Positions 46,128 through 64,000 of a stretch of DNA of 64,000 bases are shown here, piece by piece (the stretch's first letter is position 1; the number at the start of each line of letters is the position of its first letter). This stretch comes from an uncultured Poribacteria bacterium (GTDB lineage Bacteria > Poribacteria > WGA-4E > WGA-3G), in contig OX638351.1 in NCBI GenBank assembly GCA_951813565.1, positions 1,152,001 to 1,216,000 on the forward strand, written 5' to 3'. Below the pieces are notes generated by a model that did not search any database, was not told the DNA's origin, and was given only the letters and a program-made list of their open reading frames with translations. A program made the translations under genes and the position numbers.

Positions 46128-49100
46128 GTTTCTATTCCACATTGGTGCGATTAAAAGTGGTTCTCTGGCTTCAGCATGACAGACAGAACAAGCCGTTTCT
46201 ATTCCACATTGGTGCGATTAAAAGTTGTGGGTCGCCGTTGGCAATGCTATTGGTGTACCCGTGTTTCTATTCCACATTGGTGCGATTAAAAGGATTGGCC
46301 CCCTGTGACTTGTTCGGCGCCCCTGATCATGTTTCTATTCCACATTGGTGCGATTAAAAGTTTTCTGTTTTATCCCAAGGTGCTGCCAGTTGTTGATCTG
46401 TTTCTATTCCACATTGGTGCGATTAAAAGGCACGTGGGGTTGCTACACCAGAAATCAATTATGTCGTTTCTATTCCACATTGGTGCGATTAAAAGGTTGA
46501 AACTGCTGGCATAGTCAGATTACGTAACAAGAGTTTCTATTCCACATTGGTGCGATTAAAAGAATGCCAATTATGTCCAGTTCGGACTCTGGGTGGCAAT
46601 GTTTCTATTCCACATTGGTGCGATTAAAAGGAGTGCAAGAGGACTAACCAGACAGAACACATATTACTTGTTTCTATTCCACATTGGTGCGATTAAAAGA
46701 AGCCTCCACAGGTTCGGGGGTTATAGGGTTTTCAACGTTTCTATTCCACATTGGTGCGATTAAAAGAAGCCTCCACAGGTTCGGGGGTTATAGGGTTTTC
46801 AACGTTTCTATTCCACATTGGTGCGATTAAAAGTTTGCAGCAACAAGTACCTTATAAGAGTTGAAAGCGACGTTTCTATTCCACATTGGTGCGATTAAAA
46901 GATAAGTGGATGGTTGATCCTACATCTTCGGATCCCGTGTTTCTATTCCACATTGGTGCGATTAAAAGTAAGAAATTCTCCAAACCTACGAGTCAGGAAA
47001 CCCCGTTTCTATTCCACATTGGTGCGATTAAAAGGTTTCAGCACCACTCACATTAAAATAACCAGTAAGGGGTTTCTATTCCACATTGGTGCGATTAAAA
47101 GCGCGTTTGCACAAGAAAGAATTGTTCAGGATACATTAGAGAGTTTCTATTCCACATTGGTGCGATTAAAAGGTAATTAGAAAAACCCGAGCTGATTATT
47201 CCCCGAACAGTTTCTATTCCACATTGGTGCGATTAAAAGGTCTTGATATTGTCAAGCAAGTTGCAAGATATTCTCAGTTTCTATTCCACATTGGTGCGAT
47301 TAAAAGTTTAAAAAACCTGCCTATAGGGTATCGTGAAAATAGTTTCTATTCCACATTGGTGCGATTAAAAGTAGGTGTATTACACACTTTCTACGTTGCT
47401 TGGGGGTTTCTATTCCACATTGGTGCGATTAAAAGTATGTTTAGTTCTTGTTTATAATACTTTTATTTCACACGTTTCTATTCCACATTGGTGCGATTAA
47501 AAGTGGTGAAGATGTAATTATGCCTATCTATACAGATGATGTTTCTATTCCACATTGGTGCGATTAAAAGATTGAACAAGATTTTACAAGGTATACAAAA
47601 GTTGCCAGCGTTTCTATTCCACATTGGTGCGATTAAAAGAAAAAGCCGACAGTCTGTTAACCGTAAACTCAACAACCGTTTCTATTCCACATTGGTGCGA
47701 TTAAAAGTTGGTCTTTACAGGACATAGAAACTGTCTTTGAGTATGTTTCTATTCCACATTGGTGCGATTAAAAGGTTTATGAGAGGGGGAACATGTCCCC
47801 TTCAGACGCAGTTTCTATTCCACATTGGTGCGATTAAAAGAATATGACCCCGAAAAATTCACTTATATTGTTAGTAGTTTCTATTCCACATTGGTGCGAT
47901 TAAAAGGAGTTCCATTCTGGTGCATCACTCCGAATGAATTATAGTTTCTATTCCACATTGGTGCGATTAAAAGACAAACCTCTGCCCTAACATCCTTATA
48001 CGAGATCATCTCGTTTCTATTCCACATTGGTGCGATTAAAAGTCTACGTCTTATCTTGAACAAGTTATCCGTGCTAACTATGTTTCTATTCCACATTGGT
48101 GCGATTAAAAGAACCGATTGTAATTCCGATAGCACATTGTCCAAGCGGTTTCTATTCCACATTGGTGCGATTAAAAGTTATCGCGGCTCTCCCAGTCCGT
48201 ATTGGAGAGACTCTGGCGTTTCTATTCCACATTGGTGCGATTAAAAGTTTAGGCTTGAAAATCCGTGAGCGTGTTTGTAAGAGAGTTTCTATTCCACATT
48301 GGTGCGATTAAAAGGATCGTCTGTGATCCTTGTAGTCAACCTGATATTTGTTTCTATTCCACATTGGTGCGATTAAAAGGTCCAGTTCGGACTCTGGGTG
48401 GCGGTTGGAAATGCCATGTTTCTATTCCACATTGGTGCGATTAAAAGCCGAAAAGGATGACTTTGAATTTGCTAATCAACGAAGAGTTTCTATTCCACAT
48501 TGGTGCGATTAAAAGTTACTAAAGCAAAACTTAGAGTTTATATCTCCCAAGTTTCTATTCCACATTGGTGCGATTAAAAGTATATTCGCATCACAAAAGC
48601 AAAATGGAGCGTTAAGTTTCTATTCCACATTGGTGCGATTAAAAGTGCGGAGGGCCTCAAACTTTTATTTTTGGGTGAATGCTGTTTCTATTCCACATTG
48701 GTGCGATTAAAAGTGAGCGTCCCTGGATTCAACAACAAGGAGATATAAAAAGTTTCTATTCCACATTGGTGCGATTAAAAGGAAAAGTACATGAAGGAGG
48801 TGAAGAGGAAATGGCTGTTTCTATTCCACATTGGTGCGATTAAAAGGTGATGATCTTCGTCGTCATCAGGTAGGGCATGTTGCGTTTCTATTCCACATTG
48901 GTGCGATTAAAAGTGAAAAGAAAGTCCTCGCTGGTGGTTATGACTATACGTTTCTATTCCACATTGGTGCGATTAAAAGTGTTTAATCTTCATTACTCCA
49001 ATGAAGACTATTATATGTTTCTATTCCACATTGGTGCGATTAAAAGTCTGGCCGCTCAGGGCGCTGTTCTGATGCATGTGATGTTTCTATTCCACATTGG

Positions 49101-49310
49101 TGCGATTAAAAGACCAAACATCAACTATGTCCGCTTCGGCTTGTATGGTTTCTATTCCACATTGGTGCGATTAAAAGTGTTTAATCTTCATTACTCCAAT
49201 GAAGACTATTATATGTTTCTATTCCACATTGGTGCGATTAAAAGGGCTTTCCCGGACAGACAGCCAATCGGTCGCCATCAGTTTCTATTCCACATTGGTG
49301 CGATTAAAAG
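46128..49310 (-). CRISPR. CRISPR array, 48 repeats / 47 spacers (34-41 nt)
   Basis: Invariant 30-bp repeat GTTTCTATTCCACATTGGTGCGATTAAAAG on +. The transcribed strand is CTTTTAATCGCACCAATGTGGAATAGAAAC (3' GAAAC), with the leader on the cas2 side. Confidence 0.98.
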
Positions 49311-49957: not shown

Positions 49958-50187
49958 CTACGATTTAGTGTGCTTCTACCACCACTGTCGCGAGCTGGAC
50001 AAGAAAATCGGGCTTAGAAAGCCCTCCCACAAGACAAAGTGCTTCTACCACCACTGTCGCGAGCTGGACAAGAAAATCGGGCTTAGAAAGCCCTCCCACA
50101 AGACAAAGTGCTTCTACCACCACTGTCGCGAGCTGGAGCTCGCTCCTACAAGAAGAGAATCTACGATTTAGTGTGTTTCTACCACCA
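49958..50187. repeat. 69-bp tandem repeats built from the cas1 3' end and REP fragments
   Basis: Units start at 49970, 50039 and 50108 (partial); each begins gtgcttctaccacca (cas1 TGGTGGTAG reversed). Confidence 0.85.
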
Positions 50188-51980: not shown

Positions 51981-53117
51981 TTACGGATTTGCATTTACAT
52001 TGTTCCTGTGTCCATACCTACGAAGTATGAGCCTGCCGTTATCCGTTGAACAACTGACGCGGATTCCGCGGGCAACACGAAAAGTATAAACGTTAGCATG
52101 CCCTTGTAAAGCTTTAAATCGTAATCCTCCTCCTGTGAGTGCTGTTGTATCTCCGTTGTTAGCCTTAAGTTTATAGGCAACATGAGCTAATGTTTCCTGA
52201 AGTTTAATGCGTTCTTCAACATTGTTTTGATTGCTGAAGTCATCTTTGAAACTTGGCAAGTATTCCAATCGTGGGAATGGTAGAAGTTCTCCTGTCAAAA
52301 TATCTGCTTTTGTCCGATTCCAAATCAGGTTTCCCCACGCGGACAACCATGCAACAGTTTTTCCGTTATTTGCTAGAGATTCAAGCAGTGTTTCTGGAAT
52401 ACCTTCAAGTTCTTCAATAGGATAATCTGCGTCAGCCGCCATCATTGCAAATTTTGTCCGATGCTGTTGGATTACGGATGTATCAATCTTAATTGGGAGA
52501 CGTGGAATTCTAATCAGATCAGAAGATCGTTCAAAGATATATACAGTTTCATCGGCATAGAATGTGCCGAAAGTCTGCATGTAACCTTGCAGGCTTTTGA
52601 AGCCACCAACAAGATTAAATATGACACGATAACCCGCATCAGGCCGCCACGGGACGTTATCCTCCAACCACTTAATGAGCTCCTTTATACCATCGGTGAA
52701 AGAATCTGTATCTTTCGTCGATAAACCTTTAGGTGTTACAATAGATACGCTACACCCTTTATCTTGCAGAAACTCAGAAATCAGTTTACCTGTTGTTTCT
52801 CCTTGTGCGGTGTCGGTGCAGATAAGATAGTGTTGATCTTTACTGTTTTCAGGTAACCGACCTTCGTAGATACCATAAACACCATTTAATTCTGCACTTG
52901 CCATTCGGTTTGTATTTACATCATTTTCCTGGAGTTTTTTATGTGCGCGTTCAGCGAGTTTTGTAATAACATCTTGAGCCTTAGCTTCTAATTCATCATT
53001 TTTAAGATTTGCTGATTCCACAAGTATTTTTGCCCAATCTCTTGCTTCGTCCGGATCTTTTCTATTGATGGAATTTGTGAGGATACTTGTTCCAACGGTT
53101 GATACGATAAAACGCAT
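51981..53117 (-). CDS. cami1: CARF (APE2256-type)-wHTH-RelE effector, Cami1-like
   Basis: STVGTSIL, TDTxxG, NLVGGFKS and VYIFE CARF motifs; C-terminal RelE-like FKALQG..VYTFRVARGIRVS...LILRRYGH. Confidence 0.8.
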   Translation of the reverse strand: MRFIVSTVGTSILTNSINRKDPDEARDWAKILVESANLKNDELEAKAQDVITKLAERAHKKLQENDVNTNRMASAELNGVYGIYEGRLPENSKDQHYLICTDTAQGETTGKLISEFLQDKGCSVSIVTPKGLSTKDTDSFTDGIKELIKWLEDNVPWRPDAGYRVIFNLVGGFKSLQGYMQTFGTFYADETVYIFERSSDLIRIPRLPIKIDTSVIQQHRTKFAMMAADADYPIEELEGIPETLLESLANNGKTVAWLSAWGNLIWNRTKADILTGELLPFPRLEYLPSFKDDFSNQNNVEERIKLQETLAHVAYKLKANNGDTTALTGGGLRFKALQGHANVYTFRVARGIRVSCSTDNGRLILRRYGHRNNVNANP

Positions 53118-53144: not shown

Positions 53145-54317
53145 TCAAGAGGCGTCAATTGGTGATATTTTGACCCAACCGAGTGGTGTGACAGGGTTAT
53201 CTCTACGGTATAAAATGCGGCGGGTTTTTGGGAATTCACGAGTATCATAGGGTTGTCGTTGATTAGAACGACTCCTACCTAACCGATACCGTTCTCGTAA
53301 CTCCATCACGTCTATAGGTGCATCTTCTCCTTGCGTAAACGATGCGGTAACAGTGTTAGAAAGGTATCCTGCGCCCCACCCGATTTGCAGCATAAACGCA
53401 TCGTCAGCCAGTCTATTGTTTAAACCCATCAGTTGTTCATATAGGTTAGCGATTTCTGGATTATTGTAGTCATCATAGAACTTTCGTTCCACTTCCATAA
53501 GTATTTGCGTCTCCTCGTTACAAACTTCAGCAATTTCTTGGAGTATATTTTTTTGTGTCTTATCAAAATTGAGTTGTTTTTTCTCCCTTTCTCTAAAAAG
53601 CAGGTCATCAATCTTGATGGAAAAACTCAAAGACTTCACACCCTGAATTACCTCTACAAAGTTTTTATATTCTGTGTTGTCCTCAACCTTCTGTTCAAGT
53701 TGATTGTTTTGATTGAGTGTAACCGTCCATGCAGTCTCGATTGCAAGTGCGTCCCACTCAAGCGGTTCAGTATCGCTTACTTGTAATGCGCGAAGCAGAT
53801 CATGGGTAGGGTCTTTCCCAAACGCCAGTTTTTCTATCTGTTGGGCAGGATTTTCTTGTCTACGTCTCGGTGGCGTGCCTTTTTCAATTTCTCTGTTCAG
53901 ATGTTCCGAACTGTCGTTATAGAGTTTTTCATTTTCAGCATTGTTTATTAGATCCGATAACAACGCAGTGCGGAGTGCACCTTTGATACTGCTACCGGGA
54001 ATATAGGGACGGTTGCCTACGGATTTGATAGCTTCTCGTATGTCAGTTGTTTCTGGGCTTTGGGCGCAAAGGATATTATAAGTGGAAAGGTCCGCTGCAT
54101 CCATGTTGTGCCGTGAGAAGTAATCGCTCCAACGGAAATCGCGCTGCGACATTTCGGAGGTCAATGCGTTTATATCAGTGCTTGGATGCGCTAATACTTT
54201 GTCCAGGTCAATATGATACCACCTGCTGTTAGCATAATAGCCATCAATATGATTCAACGTTTCGCCTGTGCCGATGTGGACTGGGGTGAGTGTTTCAAGT
54301 TTGTATTTTTGTTTCAT
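53145..54317 (-). CDS. csm5: Csm5 RAMP
   Basis: TLTPVHIGTG, PYIPGSSIKGALRTA, QIGWGAG and PLGWV. Confidence 0.92.
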   Translation of the reverse strand: MKQKYKLETLTPVHIGTGETLNHIDGYYANSRWYHIDLDKVLAHPSTDINALTSEMSQRDFRWSDYFSRHNMDAADLSTYNILCAQSPETTDIREAIKSVGNRPYIPGSSIKGALRTALLSDLINNAENEKLYNDSSEHLNREIEKGTPPRRRQENPAQQIEKLAFGKDPTHDLLRALQVSDTEPLEWDALAIETAWTVTLNQNNQLEQKVEDNTEYKNFVEVIQGVKSLSFSIKIDDLLFREREKKQLNFDKTQKNILQEIAEVCNEETQILMEVERKFYDDYNNPEIANLYEQLMGLNNRLADDAFMLQIGWGAGYLSNTVTASFTQGEDAPIDVMELRERYRLGRSRSNQRQPYDTREFPKTRRILYRRDNPVTPLGWVKISPIDAS

Positions 54318-54337
54318 TATTGAGGTTTTCTCCTACA

Positions 54338-55393
54338 TTATCGGGAATCGGAGTTCCCTCCTACTTTGATGCCGACCTGCCACGCGTAGCCATAGCGATA
54401 GACGTGATGCGGGTATTCCTTCGGTGTTAAATCTACCAACCTGCCAACGAGTTTGTCAGATGAATTTAAAACTGAACCTTCTGCGAACATATTGACCTTT
54501 TTCCTCTTTTTGTGTGTGCCAGTTGCCCCCACCCATCCTGTTAATGGGTTTAGGTTGTAGGCGATATCACCTTTGAGGAGATGCTCAAGTTGCTCCGATG
54601 ATTTGGGGCATATCGGTGAAAGTGTGACAAATTGCGTGCTGTGTTCCGCTGTCGATATTTCAAGATCATGCGCTGGGCAAAACTCAAACTGCCCGTAACC
54701 TGCGTTGCGTTCACCACCGATTCCGTTGTCGCCAAGCACTCGGAGTAGCGTTTCTACTTTCTGTTTTGTTGCATCAGAGTCAAATTTCGCTGCGAACCAG
54801 AGTCCGCAGTTTGTATTGAATTGGACGGTTTGGACGTGCCATATTTCGGAGCCTGAATTTTGCGCACCGATGGTAACGCGCGGGCGTGTGGTAGTCTCCC
54901 AAATGATTGGCGTATTATCCATCACCTTATTTAGTTGATCTTTTTCATCAGCACTTATCCAAACATTTTCACCGTTGATCAGATTGTCTCTGTCAAAATC
55001 AGGCGATTGATCGGAGATAATGTTTTGAAAAATAGATTTGGAAATGAACCGGACCTTTTTGATTTTTTTCTTAGATTTGTCTGGGACATTTTCATTTCCA
55101 CGAAAAGTCAAAGGTTTCGGAAAGAGGTAGATGTTATCTGCATACGGAAACGCAGAGGTTAACATAAAAGGTAACGTCTCGCTATCTTCTTTGTATCGTT
55201 CAAGAGACTTTTTGAGACTGTCGGTGTCGTAAAAGGTTGACCACGTTTGGCAGATTGCAGAAAAGAGCGTATCTGCTGGGATGTAGGTCTCGGTTTTCTC
55301 TAAGCCGAGGCTGCCTGTTTGTGCTGCACCTGTGGCGCGCCCGAGGTGTAGTTGTGTTTTGAACCTTAAGCGATAGACGGTATAATCTTCCAT
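54338..55393 (-). CDS. csm4: Csm4 RAMP
   Basis: LHLG, ADTLFSA, GIGGERNAGYG and HHVYRYG. Confidence 0.92.
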   Translation of the reverse strand: MEDYTVYRLRFKTQLHLGRATGAAQTGSLGLEKTETYIPADTLFSAICQTWSTFYDTDSLKKSLERYKEDSETLPFMLTSAFPYADNIYLFPKPLTFRGNENVPDKSKKKIKKVRFISKSIFQNIISDQSPDFDRDNLINGENVWISADEKDQLNKVMDNTPIIWETTTRPRVTIGAQNSGSEIWHVQTVQFNTNCGLWFAAKFDSDATKQKVETLLRVLGDNGIGGERNAGYGQFEFCPAHDLEISTAEHSTQFVTLSPICPKSSEQLEHLLKGDIAYNLNPLTGWVGATGTHKKRKKVNMFAEGSVLNSSDKLVGRLVDLTPKEYPHHVYRYGYAWQVGIKVGGNSDSR

Positions 55394-55401
55394 AATCGCA
55401 C

Positions 55402-56232
55402 CTATTTCCCGTTAATTGCTTTCAAAATTGTAGTTTTATAGTCCAATTTGCGTAGGGTTGCAATATCGGTGTTTTCATCTCCGATAGGGGTAAGGGTAAC
55501 GTTTGGGTCTTCATAACATTCACGCGATTTGAAGGTCATGGTTAGGTTCTCAAATGCTATTTGCCCAGAACCGCGGGAACCGGAGCCGCCGAGGTAGTCA
55601 TCTTGAAGCAGTTCCATACCTTTTAGGACGGTGTCGAAAAGTTTGAGTTCGTCTTGAAGTTGATTGTCATGATCGCTGCCGTGCAGTGTATAGAGACTGT
55701 GGGCTACTTGAAATGGTCCGAATATTGCGCCTGCAGGGACCCGTTCCTGTTGACGTGGTGTAGCGGCAGAGGTAATTCGGTCAATTGCTACTTCTGTCTT
55801 AATTTCGGTGAAGTCGGTATCGGTGTCGACTCTGTCCAGTACCGCCAGTGATTCGTCGGTTAAAAAGGTGTCTCGGACGATCACACGTGTCGGCATTGTT
55901 TTCCCTCTTAATTGTTGTATTGGTGCAACACCGAAAACTTGACAAACTGGGCATATATTATATTCTGCTGGTGTTTTGCACTCGTGAACTTGGACATCTC
56001 TACCGACAGACTTATTCAAATCCTTCTCGAAGTGCCGGTCAAGTAAACCTCGCATCTTTCCACGTAAGGACGAACCGGGGATGTAGGGTTGTCGGTTGAA
56101 GGCGTTTCGTATGATTGGATTATCAATACCACCGATGTCTAATTCACCTGTGTTGCCACCGATGTGTAATCCTGTTAAGGCGTTGATTGCACCTTTTAGA
56201 AAAATTTTTCCGTGTAGTTGAATGCTTGGCAT
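55402..56232 (-). CDS. csm3: Csm3 RAMP
   Basis: TGLHIGG...IGGIDNPIIR, PYIPGSSLRGKMR, EIKTEVAIDR and YLGGSGSRGSG; AAGGAGG SD before ATG at 56232. Confidence 0.95.
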   Translation of the reverse strand: MPSIQLHGKIFLKGAINALTGLHIGGNTGELDIGGIDNPIIRNAFNRQPYIPGSSLRGKMRGLLDRHFEKDLNKSVGRDVQVHECKTPAEYNICPVCQVFGVAPIQQLRGKTMPTRVIVRDTFLTDESLAVLDRVDTDTDFTEIKTEVAIDRITSAATPRQQERVPAGAIFGPFQVAHSLYTLHGSDHDNQLQDELKLFDTVLKGMELLQDDYLGGSGSRGSGQIAFENLTMTFKSRECYEDPNVTLTPIGDENTDIATLRKLDYKTTILKAINGK

Positions 56233-56242
56233 GTGTTCCTCC

Positions 56243-59132
<2,890 letters not shown>

Positions 59133-59200: not shown

Positions 59201-59301
59201 TGCTCTATTCCAAATTGGTTCGATTAAAAATGTACAAGAAATACAAGTTCCTTTAAGAGGAACAACAAAAGTTTTTATTCCAAATTGGTTCGATTATAAA
59301 G
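59201..59301 (-). CRISPR. Degenerate one-spacer mini-array (divergent repeats)
   Basis: tgctctattccaaattggttcgattaaaaa, a 40-nt spacer (59231-59270), then gtttttattccaaattggttcgattataaag. Both repeats share the same two substitutions versus the main repeat. Confidence 0.85.
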
Positions 59302-59419
59302 TGTACATCCAACATTATACATTTTGTACACTATTAAGTTTGGAATGTCAAGTTAAAAGTCAGGAAATTCGGAAATATAAAGGTAGGGCGAGGCAAAGGT
59401 GCCTCGCCAATTCAGTGGG

Positions 59420-59599
59420 TTAATTGTTTGGAAAACTTTTGATGTTTTTCTTACAGTTCTTTGTAATTCTTTTTATCTCATTTTTCTCATTGTACTTGCT
59501 GGTGTCTTTCGACTCATCTCGAAAAAACGAGAAGAAAAATCCGAAATGGATTTTTACCTTCCTGTTCGGTTGTAAGCGAAATTCTGAATAGAATTTCAT
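59420..59599 (-). CDS. Putative 59-aa basic small protein
   Basis: Manual translation MKFYSEFRLQPNRKVKIHFGFFFSFFRDESKDTSKYNEKNEIKRITKNCKKNIKSFPNN; GAAAGGAGG SD; below the ORF-track cutoff. Confidence 0.4.
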   Translation of the reverse strand: MKFYSEFRLQPNRKVKIHFGFFFSFFRDESKDTSKYNEKNEIKRITKNCKKNIKSFPNN

Positions 59600-59721
59600 G
59601 ATATCTGCCTCCTTTCTTCATAAAATTTAACATTTATCTCCTTTCTTGTTTGACATGAGTCCACAGTAGAATACTTTCCTTAAACTTGTGAAACATCTTG
59701 TCGTGATTTATTCTAATGATA

Positions 59722-59738
59722 TGCAAAATCTATGCCAA
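59722..59738 (-). promoter_or_regulatory. Sigma54 (-24/-12) promoter
   Basis: Minus strand TTGGCATAGATTTTGCA is TGGCAY-N5-TTGCA with exact GG-N10-GC spacing. Confidence 0.6.
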
Positions 59739-59855
59739 TAATTTCGGTAGAAATTATATGGTTATCTCCTTTTTGCTGTGCCAAATTGACATTTTTATCG
59801 CAACTTCATAAAACAACAAGGTCAATTCGGCACATTTGGAGCGTTTAACGTTATA

Positions 59856-62189
59856 CTATAAAACGTTCGGATTATATTCGTCTAATATCAGACCAAGTGT
59901 ATTATCGTAGCGAACGTTGATGAAATACTGATTTATACGTTCATTTTCGTTGATTTGCCCATCCTTATATAGTTTTGCAAATTGGCTGTAACTAATTTGT
60001 GCGATGTATGCCCTCGCTTCATAATACTTGCGAGCATCTGTGTCGGATAAAAATTCTTGTTCGTAGCACGTTGGCACAACCTCAACGCTTTTAAAGAGTT
60101 CGTTAAACTCTTTACGTCCTTTAGCATCTTCAATGAACGGGACGATGTCTTGTAGGTGCCGTTCAAACAGTTGTTTTGCTCTATTAAACTTATCATTTTC
60201 TTTTTCATCATACCCTTCACAATAAACATTTTCTATAAGGACTTGGATTTTTGACTCCTTGAGTGTGTCATTAACTACAGATGCGAAAGCGTTTATAGTG
60301 CGTTCAACTTTCTCTGTGGAATAGATGTATTTATCGCTTTTCCCACCCTCTTTGCATATATGGACATCACAGATTCCTTTCTTGCCTTTTCTGTTGATAC
60401 GACCAAAACGTTGGATGAGTGCATCTATCGGTGCAGGTTCAGTAAAGAGACAATCAAAATCAATGTCAAGTGATACCTCAACGGCTTGTGTGCCGACAAG
60501 GAGATCGGCGTTTTCAAGTTCTCCTTCTATCCTTTCCCGATCTTTAAGGATAAATCGGCTGTGAAGGAGTTTGGCATTATCGGCTCCATGCTGCAATTCC
60601 TGAAACACATCTTGTGCCTGCTTGACAGTATTACAGACAACCATAACGCTATCTCCTTGGTTCAGTTTATCCTTTATTTTCGGAATAGCATCGGGGATAT
60701 TTCCATCAAGCAGCTTGACACGGTGCCGTGTGAATTTGTCCCTATCTTCTGGTGCCATGTCAACTGGTATGAATTCCCCGATTGCCTTGATAATCATATC
60801 TGTAAGAAACTGGGGCATTGTAGCAGTCATAATGCAGAACTTTGCATTGTAATCTTCACGGAGTTTCTTTATCATTGTCAAAATAAGCGCGGTTGTGTGC
60901 GGATCATAAGCATGGATTTCGTCAAAGATGAAAAGTCCATGAGACATCTCTGCCATCTGCATTTCAAAACCGCGTATACCGAAAAATGCTTTGAGGAGTT
61001 GAAAGGGCGTTAGCACCTTGTAAGGACGACAAATTTTTTTCGTTAGATCTCTTTCGTCTTGAGCACGTTTTTGCCTAACTAATTTTTCGGCAGATTCATG
61101 ATCACGCCCCTGATCAATGAAAGCTTGATATATGGCTTGATATTTGGCAGCATTTTGAGGTGTATAGTCTTTATCAACGAGTGCTTGATACATGAAGTAG
61201 GTAGCCTTTCCATGCAACACACCTATTTTTTCGTCTGATACGAGTTTTTTCAATCTCTTATACATTGCGTTGATGCTTGCAGTATAGGGTAACACATAAA
61301 AGACACGGTTACCTTTTGTTTTGCATTGGTTTTTGTCTGACCAAAGCAGCGCAGCTTCCGTTTTACCTGAACCTGTCGGTGCTGATAGCATGAGCTGACC
61401 GTCGGTTTTCCCAGCATCCTCTTGAAAGGACTCCCATCCGTGAAATTGTCGTCCTCTTTGCTCAATGCTTTGTACAAGGGACGCTTCAAGTTTATCAAGG
61501 GCGGTTTGGATTTCGTTTTTGGCATTGACATTAGAAGCAAGATGATCGCAGGCAATCATGCATCCGCGCATCAGCATGCCGTAGGTGCAGTGTAAGGAGT
61601 TTAATTCACCGTCTTCAAAGTCGTTCAAATATGGGGCAAGAAATTCTCGGTAACCACTAATGAGTAGATCGGTTGAGGTAACGGGTGTCCATAAGCACGT
61701 TGTTGTAGGAAACCAACTATGAAACCAATGAGGGATCTGCTCCTGTATTTCCATCAAAGCATCCCAATTCGGTTCCAGTTCTGCAACATGCTTTTGCCAC
61801 TCTTGATAACCTTCTTCGTTTTCTGGAATGCATGGATACTTTTCCCACAGCGTCTCACTATCCTTATGGTGTGTTAAAATGGCAAGTGCAATTGCCTGTT
61901 TTGCCTCATCTGATATTTGAAGTGTTACCACAAATCCAGTGGAAAGGATTTCATGACGATAGTTCCACCGATCATCTCTATCGGTAAGTTGCTTTTGGAA
62001 ACCGGTTGCTGCTTTGCCGAAATCGTGAAGTGCGACAGCGTAAAAAAGATGTTCAAAGAAATTAGGTTCTCCTGCAACATCAGCTAAAAAAGGCATCCGT
62101 TCTCGTAGACTATTGTATACTTCAAGACAATTCTGTGTATGATCATGAAGTGATTCTTGTGGATCGCTTTTTGCTAATAGTGTGGACAT
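59856..62189 (-). CDS. cas3: Cas3 HD nuclease-helicase
   Basis: LHDFGKA, RHE, APTGSGKTEA, FDEIHAY, TAT and QRFGRINR. Confidence 0.97.
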   Translation of the reverse strand: MSTLLAKSDPQESLHDHTQNCLEVYNSLRERMPFLADVAGEPNFFEHLFYAVALHDFGKAATGFQKQLTDRDDRWNYRHEILSTGFVVTLQISDEAKQAIALAILTHHKDSETLWEKYPCIPENEEGYQEWQKHVAELEPNWDALMEIQEQIPHWFHSWFPTTTCLWTPVTSTDLLISGYREFLAPYLNDFEDGELNSLHCTYGMLMRGCMIACDHLASNVNAKNEIQTALDKLEASLVQSIEQRGRQFHGWESFQEDAGKTDGQLMLSAPTGSGKTEAALLWSDKNQCKTKGNRVFYVLPYTASINAMYKRLKKLVSDEKIGVLHGKATYFMYQALVDKDYTPQNAAKYQAIYQAFIDQGRDHESAEKLVRQKRAQDERDLTKKICRPYKVLTPFQLLKAFFGIRGFEMQMAEMSHGLFIFDEIHAYDPHTTALILTMIKKLREDYNAKFCIMTATMPQFLTDMIIKAIGEFIPVDMAPEDRDKFTRHRVKLLDGNIPDAIPKIKDKLNQGDSVMVVCNTVKQAQDVFQELQHGADNAKLLHSRFILKDRERIEGELENADLLVGTQAVEVSLDIDFDCLFTEPAPIDALIQRFGRINRKGKKGICDVHICKEGGKSDKYIYSTEKVERTINAFASVVNDTLKESKIQVLIENVYCEGYDEKENDKFNRAKQLFERHLQDIVPFIEDAKGRKEFNELFKSVEVVPTCYEQEFLSDTDARKYYEARAYIAQISYSQFAKLYKDGQINENERINQYFINVRYDNTLGLILDEYNPNVL

Positions 62190-62192
62190 GTC

Positions 62193-62828
62193 TTATTCTC
62201 CATGAATGCGTTGGTGCAAATAGACACCCCATTCCTTATCGGTATCGTGTAATACATCACCCTCATATTTTATTTCCTCTGTGATAAGACAATATGCACG
62301 TGTACCACACTGCCGACGCGGAATATCTGCTGTGAAATGCGTTGGTAATGCCTGCACCTGTCCGTGAAGTTGTTGGTCAGGAAACGGGAGTATTGTATCG
62401 CAATAAGTCGTTTCCGTTTTACGTTCTAATTCAACTTCCTCTATAGATTTCACCGTTGCTAAATCTGAGGAACGCCCCAACAGCAAGGGGTAATGTGGTC
62501 GTTCTAATGCATCCTTTAACCACATATCCGGGGTATAAAGATAGAGTTCTGGTTGCACAAGGAATTCGCGTCTGTTGACGTTTGATTTTGCATCTAACTT
62601 GCCTCCAAATTCATAGACGGTTTCTAAATCAACTGCTCTGCCTTTACTCTTAAAAACAAACCCTATTGCTGCATCATGCGGTGTAACCCAGTCACCTTTT
62701 GCAGCAGTCAAAAGCCCATAAAGTGCCGAAAGTGGTGGTAAGGGTAGTGTCGGCTGGAATCCGCTAATAAATAACGGATTCCGAAATGATGAAACCCATC
62801 CCGTAATGTGAACGCGTAGAACCTTCAT
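62193..62828 (-). CDS. cas5: Cas5 (type I-B)
   Basis: SSFRNP...TLPLPPLSALYGLL, REFL and LLLGRSSDL. Confidence 0.92.
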   Translation of the reverse strand: MKVLRVHITGWVSSFRNPLFISGFQPTLPLPPLSALYGLLTAAKGDWVTPHDAAIGFVFKSKGRAVDLETVYEFGGKLDAKSNVNRREFLVQPELYLYTPDMWLKDALERPHYPLLLGRSSDLATVKSIEEVELERKTETTYCDTILPFPDQQLHGQVQALPTHFTADIPRRQCGTRAYCLITEEIKYEGDVLHDTDKEWGVYLHQRIHGE

Positions 62829-63856
62829 GGAATGTCTCCGATATGTGTTTCTAATTTTTGTGATAACATGGATATTACCTTATTTGGCGAATCGTAAACG
62901 ATTTCACATGGTAGGTTTGTGTTGTTTGCCAAACTCATTAGATCCTCATCTATTCCATCCATGAACCCGCTCCGTCTACCGATATAAATCGCATCACAAA
63001 ATCGGTCTGCGTAGTCGTCAATAACTTGGTTTAGTGCGTCTAAAGATAACTCTCCGACTTCATTTCGTTCTACCATTAAATTCATGAATGGGTGGTTTCC
63101 ACCGTCAAGGACTGTGAGAATAATCAGTTTAGGTGTAACATCGGTGAGGTGTGATGTCAATTTTGCCCCACCACTGAGTATAGGAAGTGCTTCAAGAGTT
63201 TGTTGACAACGTCTCACCCGAATCTCTTTTGGAAGCACCCACGGTGCCTTTTCGTCTTCCTGAGTGCCACCCGCATTTTGGATAGTCTCAACATAACTTG
63301 ATGAGATATTCTTATAGCCAGTCCTGTTAACATCAGAAAACGCACCCACTGCACTGAGATCTAATGAGAAAATACCTTGTAGGACACACGAATAAAATTG
63401 GTGTTCATACGGCACTGGATCACCTTCTTGCCGTGCCATCACACCGAAATCGTTTGTTGGAATTTGTGGTTCGATAGCAATAAGCGGTGAACACTTCAGT
63501 GGAGACAAGCGGGTTACCGTCAAGTTTACTCTTTTCTTACCTTGCATTTCGCTTTGAGCACGCATATAACCAAAGACATCGTCATCGTCATAAGTTACAG
63601 GGTCTGCAGCGGTAAATGCAATTTTTTTCTCTCTTTCTATAGGCGAATTTTTCCATTCATCAAATTCGTGTTTAAGGGTGGTGCGCCACCAGTTTCGCCA
63701 TGCTTGTCCGGAAACATAAGGATAGGTACTCCGTCCTTTTCTTAACGTTTTGACCTTTACTATGTTTTCTGTTCTTTCAGATGTGTCCTCACCTGCGTTG
63801 TTAAGTGCGGAATATGGTGCATCAATTAGGGTGAGTCCGATAAGGTGTTTAGACAT
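62825..63856 (-). CDS. cas7: Cas7 (Cst2/DevR, type I-B)
   Basis: SALNNAG, PYVSGQAWR, DDDVFGYMRA, RLSPL and TDVTPK. Confidence 0.93.
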   Translation of the reverse strand: MSKHLIGLTLIDAPYSALNNAGEDTSERTENIVKVKTLRKGRSTYPYVSGQAWRNWWRTTLKHEFDEWKNSPIEREKKIAFTAADPVTYDDDDVFGYMRAQSEMQGKKRVNLTVTRLSPLKCSPLIAIEPQIPTNDFGVMARQEGDPVPYEHQFYSCVLQGIFSLDLSAVGAFSDVNRTGYKNISSSYVETIQNAGGTQEDEKAPWVLPKEIRVRRCQQTLEALPILSGGAKLTSHLTDVTPKLIILTVLDGGNHPFMNLMVERNEVGELSLDALNQVIDDYADRFCDAIYIGRRSGFMDGIDEDLMSLANNTNLPCEIVYDSPNKVISMLSQKLETHIGDIP

Positions 63857-63858
63857 GA

Positions 63859-64000
63859 TTAGTCCTCCTCATTTGCTTCGGTTTCAGATGCATCGTCTGC
63901 ATCAGGTATATTATCTTCATCAAAATCAACAAAACCTTTATCCTGTAGCCAGTTGTGGAGTCGTTCATAAACCCGAAAAAGCAGTAAGTCGCGCGTCTCT
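63859..64000 (-). CDS. cas8b: C-terminus of Cas8b1/Cst1 (partial)
   Basis: Manual translation ETRDLLLFRVYERLHNWL...acidic tail, immediately upstream of cas7. Confidence 0.7.
   Translation of the reverse strand, partial: ETRDLLLFRVYERLHNWLQDKGFVDFDEDNIPDADDASETEANEED

Follow-up and report, generated by a model that had tools for sequence, protein, structure and literature searches.

A one-spacer CRISPR mini-array ahead of cas10 in Poribacteria and its complementary small gene: a candidate type III-guided, RNA-level toxin-antitoxin-like module

CRISPR-regulated toxin-antitoxin systems, like the autoregulation of cas genes, have so far been described for effectors that bind DNA. In CreTA and CrePA the guide, CreA, base-pairs next to a PAM with promoter DNA, and Cascade blocks transcription (PMC9458426, PMC12737573); for crlRNA/CreR the targets examined are PAM-flanked cas promoters (10.1101/2023.03.03.530964), and the scaRNA of Francisella acts with Cas9, by DNA-level repression over a 15-bp match (PMC9458426). 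Mini-arrays of type III have no conserved position and no targets according to Shmakov et al. (10.1101/2023.03.03.530964). In type III effectors, pairing of the crRNA tag with the flank of the target permits cutting by Csm3 and blocks cOA production and DNase activity (PMC9297841, PMC9368842), and in an engineered knockdown pairing at -1 to -5 gave Csm3 cutting without cOA (PMC9297841, PMC11127173). A 2025 review asks whether such coupling occurs in other CRISPR types (PMC12737573). The available portions of PMC12737573, PMC12948488, PMC9458426 and 10.1101/2024.10.29.618823 describe no type III case (type III and Csm go unmentioned in those of the last), and a literature search conducted mostly outside subscription journals found no natural type III guide of this kind, so that a prior description is possible.

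Here we examine a composite CRISPR locus in a 64,000-nucleotide stretch of DNA (the window) from an uncultured member of the Poribacteria, whose 5.43-Mb genome we call G000. A preliminary description had proposed a hidden one-spacer mini-array upstream of cas10; it missed both the small open reading frame (ORF) upstream of that array and the target of the spacer. By comparing the array, the small gene and their complementarity among genomes of the phylum, we hypothesize that together they form a type III-guided, RNA-level toxin-antitoxin-like system, a proposal that we hold with slightly more than even confidence.

The locus and its mini-array

The minus strand of the locus reads cas6, cas8b, cas7, cas5, cas3, a 720-bp gap, cas10 and csm2-5, and after csm5 a CARF gene, cas4, cas1, cas2, a leader and a 48-repeat array. 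The type I-B part comprises cas3, cas5, cas7 and the 3' end of cas8b (59856-64000, minus strand); the remainder of cas8b, and cas6 (65330-66082 in window numbering), lie past the window edge. A near-consensus sigma-70 promoter (TTGACA-17-TATGAT) occupies 65251-65329 in the cas6/cas8b interval, and the mini-array spacer does not target it. The type III-A operon (cas10, csm2, csm3, csm4 and csm5; 53145-59132, minus strand) is recognized over the NCBIfam cut-off, and its cas10 (56850-59132, minus strand) has intact HD and GGDD motifs. The CARF protein (51981-53117, minus strand; APE2256 family, Pfam PF09651; PDB matches 7pq2, 3qyf and 8phb) is a possible cOA effector or ring nuclease, and we take it to be possibly Cami1-like. 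The main CRISPR array (46128-49310, minus strand) holds 48 repeats and 47 spacers.

Several other features of the genome were recorded. Csm2 (56243-56797) is fused to an N-terminal cold-shock (RNA-binding) domain, as it is in G001, G009, G041 and G002 and as it is not in G003, G023 and G078; a 69-bp unit in about 2.5 copies, related to a dispersed 29-bp repeat, lies between cas1 and cas2 (49958-50187). At G000:C1:3988991-4005807 there is a second locus rich in RAMP genes, type III-like and equipped with an array of about 54 repeats; a third array (about 26 repeats), near which no cas gene was noticed, lies at G000:C1:2830673-2832349.

The mini-array sits in the 720-bp gap between cas3 and cas10, on the minus strand, and consists of repeat 1 (59271-59300), which is the source of the 8-nt tag AUAAAAAC, a 40-nt spacer (59231-59270) and repeat 2 (59201-59230), whose 3' end is decayed. 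With one mismatch allowed, the repeat core motif matches the window 50 times, 48 in the main array and 2 in the mini-array, far above the shuffle mean of 0.34, and the spacer length compares with 34-41 nt (median 37) for the main-array spacers. The array that had been proposed is therefore real, as is the internal hairpin reported for its spacer (6 bp, spacer positions 8-24). The repeats had been called degenerate, and they do depart from the 48-copy main repeat at 5 (repeat 1) and 6 (repeat 2) of 30 positions, but their core AACCAATTTGG is the ordinary main-array core in G023 and in part of G001, which makes it a variant of the repeat and not a decayed form. Apart from the main array, the genome has just four sites that differ from the main repeat at 8 positions or fewer: the two mini-array repeats, one solo repeat and one chance-like site with 8 mismatches. 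The solo repeat-like sequence (G000:C1:4216797-4216826, 6 mismatches) is remote from any cas gene, has a GC hairpin before it and a strong ribosome site and short frame just after it, and is possibly another Cas6-processed element.

The suggestion that the mini-array has its own promoter, sharing its -35 region with the main leader, is likewise borne out: a sigma-70-like TTGACA-17-TACAAA lies at 59323-59358 (minus strand), and a 13-bp motif covering the -35 is common to both, with 5 copies genome-wide of which 2 are in the CRISPR locus. A comparable layout was read by eye in G001, G003, G013 and G085; a consensus promoter scan did not call the mini-array promoter.

The small gene, its promoter and its distribution

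Upstream of the mini-array the minus strand carries a small ORF of 59 aa (59420-59599), preceded by an AAGGAGG ribosome site (59608-59614) and encoding a putative toxin. A 9-bp GC-rich hairpin after the stop (59387-59408, minus strand), probably a terminator although its U-tract is weak, has a predicted energy of -17.8 kcal/mol (z = -5.8; 0 of 200 shuffles as stable), and a hairpin-like stretch was read by eye after each homologue. Across the whole length of the ORF pN/pS is below 1 in 21 of 21 pairs (uncorrected), and the small gene is, on sequence grounds, under purifying selection; synonymous sites in the first half of the ORF are near saturation. Homologues of the protein (8 in one search, 11 clusters in another) are all unnamed, and no Pfam, PADLOC, PDB or Atlas assignment was obtained. 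The AlphaFold model shows an aromatic beta-hairpin (residues 2-24) and a basic helix at low confidence (pLDDT 63), and searching for similar folds with this low-confidence model produced nothing at E 0.001 or better. Members of the family are basic (+3 to +10), with an aromatic-rich N-terminus and no clear membrane helix. A 34-aa form in G023 keeps only the hairpin and the target, so that the hairpin probably carries the function. Overlapping frames of 39 codons (G000) and 54 codons (G013) were rejected as candidates, neither being seen in the other modules.

The gene is preceded by TGGCAY-N5-TTGCW (59722-59737, minus strand), present in 7/7 modules, which we take from its consensus to be a sigma-54 promoter. 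Further upstream are palindromes TGYCA-N3-TGRCA (59779-59832, minus strand; one exact, 59779-59791, and one imperfect, 59820-59832), to which an activator or regulator may bind; with one mismatch allowed, all seven modules have at least one such site ahead of the sigma-54-type site. Because sigma-54 promoters require an activator, the module would act as a conditional fail-safe and not as a constant addiction. The combination of a palindrome with a downstream sigma-54-like site occurs three times in G000 (0.19 expected), at clpB, groES and the small gene, and rpoN is found over the cut-off in 5/5 genomes tested, G000 included. Sigma-54-type promoters are present at clpB (G000:C1:3194678), groES (4873909) and an Hsp20 gene (4753104), the first two with the shared palindrome, suggesting an undescribed activator-driven chaperone regulon.

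To survey the phylum we combined DNA, Cas10, protein-profile and tag-plus-spacer pattern searches of 176 genomes, the pattern being derived from five of the modules. Gene, target and mini-array occur together in seven of these genomes (G000, G001, G003, G013, G023, G078 and G085), which represent two genera. Every genome with the tag-plus-spacer pattern has the small ORF, and no ORF without the spacer was seen among the 176; the profile detected six of the seven ORFs, the 34-codon form of G023 having been read by eye. Two Candidatus Poribacteria records carry the small protein. A protein match in G045 (E 1e-5) has three stops and neither promoter nor array, and was excluded from the seven as spurious. 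Cas10 is matched in 46 genomes, and the module is present at 6 of 30 cas10 loci examined, so placed that six of the seven modules lie directly before cas10 with the III-A operon adjoining. The seventh, in G013 (genome 81% complete), has no adjacent csm genes and no cas gene downstream, and a III-B operon is encoded elsewhere. An insertion sequence separates gene and array in G001, where pairing is retained, while in G009, G041 and G002 a single repeat is kept before cas10 and spacer and ORF have both been lost.

Within the species, spacer and target are identical in a contig (L060) and in contigs of three of four runs (the three from two studies, the fourth without cover), any of which may include the window's own source, and the spacer is homologous in 6 other species. 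A spacer that varied between strains or matched a virus would be the mark of a relic antiviral array; it is instead constant, and its pattern had 0 matches in viral contigs. A metagenome pattern scan returned one locus, of the same species. Some neighbouring variation was observed. In L060 (4152-6440) cas3, the small ORF and csm2 are 99.7-100% identical to those of the window and Cas10 only 77%, the cas10 allele having been swapped right after the mini-array. In runs X2 and X3 a contig from a different organism has repeat 2 and the end of the spacer in common with the window (59206-59239) and then continues into another spacer, a hint that the module has further variants, and the cas6-cas10 interval of L074 (G054) holds nine mutually divergent repeats with no strong local target, a possible multi-guide regulatory array.

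Target complementarity and tag pairing

Scored against both strands of the whole genome, the spacer finds its best match at 59437-59476 (minus strand), 136 bp upstream of repeat 1, where it is complementary at 27/40 positions to the 3' coding part of the small-ORF mRNA. The mismatches fall at positions 6, 11, 12, 18, 21-24, 30, 36 and 38-40, and thus take in all six of the every-sixth positions. One further genome site also reaches 27/40 and fails from position 1; when every-sixth positions are ignored the target scores 26/30 and the runner-up site 22, and 20 control spacers (those of at least 36 nt among the first 25 of the 47 in the main array) have best genome scores of 21-23/30. The five bases flanking the target equal the last five of the repeat, a flank that argues against a PAM, and in the mRNA they form an anti-tag (59432-59436, minus strand) able to pair with crRNA tag -1 to -5, with which the G-to-A change of repeat 1 at tag -5 agrees. 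The guide is antisense to the sense strand of the ORF in all seven modules, and invariant residues of the protein other than Met all fall in the target and its flank.

Over spacer positions 1-36 of the seven modules, every-sixth positions match in 9/42 cases versus 180/210 elsewhere (column permutation P = 3.5e-5), counts that are not independent trials since the modules share descent. Codon drift was rejected as the source of this pattern, because phase 3, which has the same codon position as the sixths, matches in 37/42. With positions 12 and 24 omitted, as possibly fixed by the spacer hairpin, the sixths match in 9/28, and the hairpin itself may explain the mismatches at these two positions. 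The G013 spacer was scored ungapped, its distal part being shifted, and its codon positions were taken from the 54-codon frame, the wrong frame for the small ORF.

The tag behaves differently at different positions: in the seven modules -2 to -5 are paired in 28/28 cases, -1 in 4/7 and -6 to -8 in 5/21, and position -1 is unpaired in Csm structures. Opposite tag -2 and -5 lie synonymous codon sites, and -5 varies together with a Phe codon (TTT goes with tag A in four modules, TTC with tag G in three); -3 and -4 face the invariant Phe codon itself, so that protein constraint may contribute to the pairing. Spacer positions 1-4 are paired in 7/7 modules, and predicted guide-mRNA duplex energies range from -27 to -45 kcal/mol. 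Covariation of spacer and target is modest: the G000 spacer matches 29/36 positions of the G001 target versus 26 of its own, and a spacer set against another species' target often scores as well as or better than the own pair, the exception being comparisons of the G003/G023 group with the other modules.

Silencing through type III and competing explanations

A match in coding mRNA, pairing of the tag, covariation of -5 at a synonymous site and linkage to cas10 in six modules (with no Cas3 over the cut-off in G023 and G078, and a III-B operon elsewhere in G013) together point to type III as the effector, and we consider type III-guided silencing of the small-gene mRNA to be quite likely. The modules show what a non-activating type III crRNA and target would: a tag, a 30-40 nt guide complementary to RNA with every sixth base unpaired, and tag:flank pairing, in genomes that encode type III Cas10 and Csm/Cmr in 7/7 cases, with Cas6 in G000, G001, G023 and G078. 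Such silencing without cOA matters because the HD and GGDD motifs of Cas10 are intact and CARF genes are present.

In the scheme that we propose, transcription of the mini-array would start at its own promoter, and Cas6 would cut out a crRNA-like guide; taken up by the Csm complex, whose genes follow immediately downstream, this guide would pair with the 3' coding end of the mRNA. Csm3 would then cleave that mRNA ahead of its stop codon, leaving a non-stop message, while pairing at tag -2 to -5, judging from the published behaviour of type III-A, should suppress both cOA synthesis and DNA cleavage by Cas10. Loading or cutting could be impaired by the central mismatches (11, 21-23) and by the hairpin in the spacer. 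The gene would be transcribed under stress from its promoter of the chaperone-regulon, sigma-54 type. In the last and least secure step, the basic, aromatic beta-hairpin protein would be toxic and accumulate only if Csm were lost, inhibited or swamped. Neither family, structure nor neighbours support its identity as a toxin, and we regard toxicity as an evenly balanced question. The hard-wired guide and evolved anti-tag may then form an AND gate with two inputs, stress and a disabled Csm, by which cells with inhibited type III immunity die or stall, and may be the first natural RNAi-like use of type III, which we offer tentatively as something a little short of probable.

The most serious alternative, rather unlikely in our judgement, retains the cutting of the mRNA by Csm and makes the protein a non-toxic regulator or accessory, or makes the cut a trimming of stress-induced read-through into csm, in a CreR-like autoregulation. 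G009 keeps the sigma-54 site and palindromes ahead of its single repeat and cas10, so that this promoter may serve the csm operon, and the weak U-tract of the post-ORF hairpin and the want of a toxin family match agree with the same reading. Yet that hairpin is strong and stands between target and cas10, cutting ahead of the Cas6 sites could leave the cas10 mRNA untouched, the G013 module persists with no cas gene downstream, and among the 176 genomes the ORF was never seen without its spacer.

The preliminary description favoured Cascade, guided by the mini-array to a PAM-flanked cas promoter, and a coupling of I-B and III-A. Generalized to binding of DNA by the I-B complex at the ORF promoter, or on the ORF body as a roadblock, such CreTA-, CrePA- or CreR-like repression is, we think, improbable. 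I-B genes do adjoin the module in G000 and G085 and lie near it in G003, the 6-nt pattern fits any class 1 complex (PMC11127173) and so, while indicating a class 1 backbone, fails to separate type I from type III, and G000 has a 9/10 seed match with a CCT flank over a promoter palindrome, a score reached by 10/300 shuffles. That promoter match is absent in the other six modules (at most 8/10, reached by 51-275 of 300 shuffles), and the one convincing target lies in the coding region with a flank equal to the repeat end, which type I should treat as self. Upstream of cas6 and cas8b the best sites have 7/10 seed matches, and in front of these two genes, of cas10 and of the main leader every candidate target with a PAM flank was rejected as unconvincing; at the cas10 start (59119) a 10-nt spacer match ends at position 10. 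The coupling of the two systems is hard to reconcile with G023 and G078, single-contig genomes with completeness of 92% and 94%, in which the module is intact and no Cas3 was found over the cut-off; no I-B cas5 was found in G023 or G001. What stands from that description is the broader idea of a conserved crRNA-like regulator or antitoxin candidate, given the own promoter and the spacer kept across strains and in 6 other species. A search for the I-B PAM in a phage collection found no protospacers for the spacers, and 780 pooled spacers gave just partial matches to repeated elements in their own genome; in the arrays L030 (G054) and L047 (G055), single spacers match by their 3' 22-26 bases dispersed G000 elements present in dozens of copies.

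Equally improbable, or slightly more so, is a plain antisense RNA, freed by Cas6 and silencing the mRNA without a Cas backbone in the manner of a type I antitoxin. The duplex energies and the want of an adjacent effector in the G013 module speak for it, but free pairing would not spare the sixth bases or end at tag -5, and type III Cas10 is encoded in all seven genomes. It is very improbable that the guide instead turns Csm into a stress sensor, in which the sigma-54 transcript activates Cas10 and a CARF effector and so induces dormancy: the pairing of spacer positions 1-4, the intact Cas10 motifs and the CARF genes would allow this, against which stand the invariable pairing of -2 to -5, which suppresses activation in tested systems, and a conserved reading frame that a sensor would not need. 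Least probable of all is a functionless relic array or chance local inverted repeat in this AT-rich region, as the view of Shmakov et al. that type III mini-arrays are degraded repeats (10.1101/2023.03.03.530964) might suggest, for 7 species from two genera have preserved both spacer and target despite the near-saturated synonymous sites, the pairing outlasts the G001 insertion sequence, and the mismatches are periodic.

If type III-guided silencing is correct, type III complexes regulate mRNA of their own host, and self-recognition by the tag has been repurposed as a switch that silences without alarm. The locus further draws attention to a family of small, unassigned proteins under putative stress control, and it yields a search rule for similar modules: instead of PAM-flanked promoters, one should look in coding sequence close by for antisense matches that have 6-nt gaps and a flank matching the tag.

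Among described systems, CreTA and CrePA offer the closest likeness, each with a two-repeat mini-array in a cas locus beside a small upstream gene that is partly complementary and has a strong ribosome site (PMC9458426, PMC12737573), guide and target being co-inherited. Unlike CreA, the guide here matches coding mRNA over about 27-31 nt, with a tag-pairing flank, and persists without Cas3; unlike CrePA and CreTA, the small protein is not a KilA-N protein such as CreP, and nothing resembling the short tRNA-sequestering frame of CreT was noticed. The module thus appears to resemble these systems in logic, with a repeat-spacer unit inside the cas locus, while departing from the promoter complementarity (a seed match in the ORF promoter in one of seven modules, that of G000) and the Cascade dependence that define CreTA, CrePA and CreR. 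It shares with crlRNA/CreR a conserved mini-array, a long gap next to cas3, a composite I/III locus and mismatches at sixth positions (10.1101/2023.03.03.530964), and differs from the type III mini-arrays surveyed there in that position, spacer and target are conserved and follow cas10. As Francisella scaRNA does, a repeat-derived RNA would direct a CRISPR effector at an endogenous gene (PMC9458426). Engineered type III-A knockdown similarly employs a guide to endogenous mRNA, with a 3' flank pairing to tag -1 to -5 (PMC9297841), but is artificial and fully complementary, whereas the module described here is natural, imperfect and tied to one neighbour gene; what would be new is the logic of a CRISPR-regulated toxin-antitoxin system carried out on RNA via type III.
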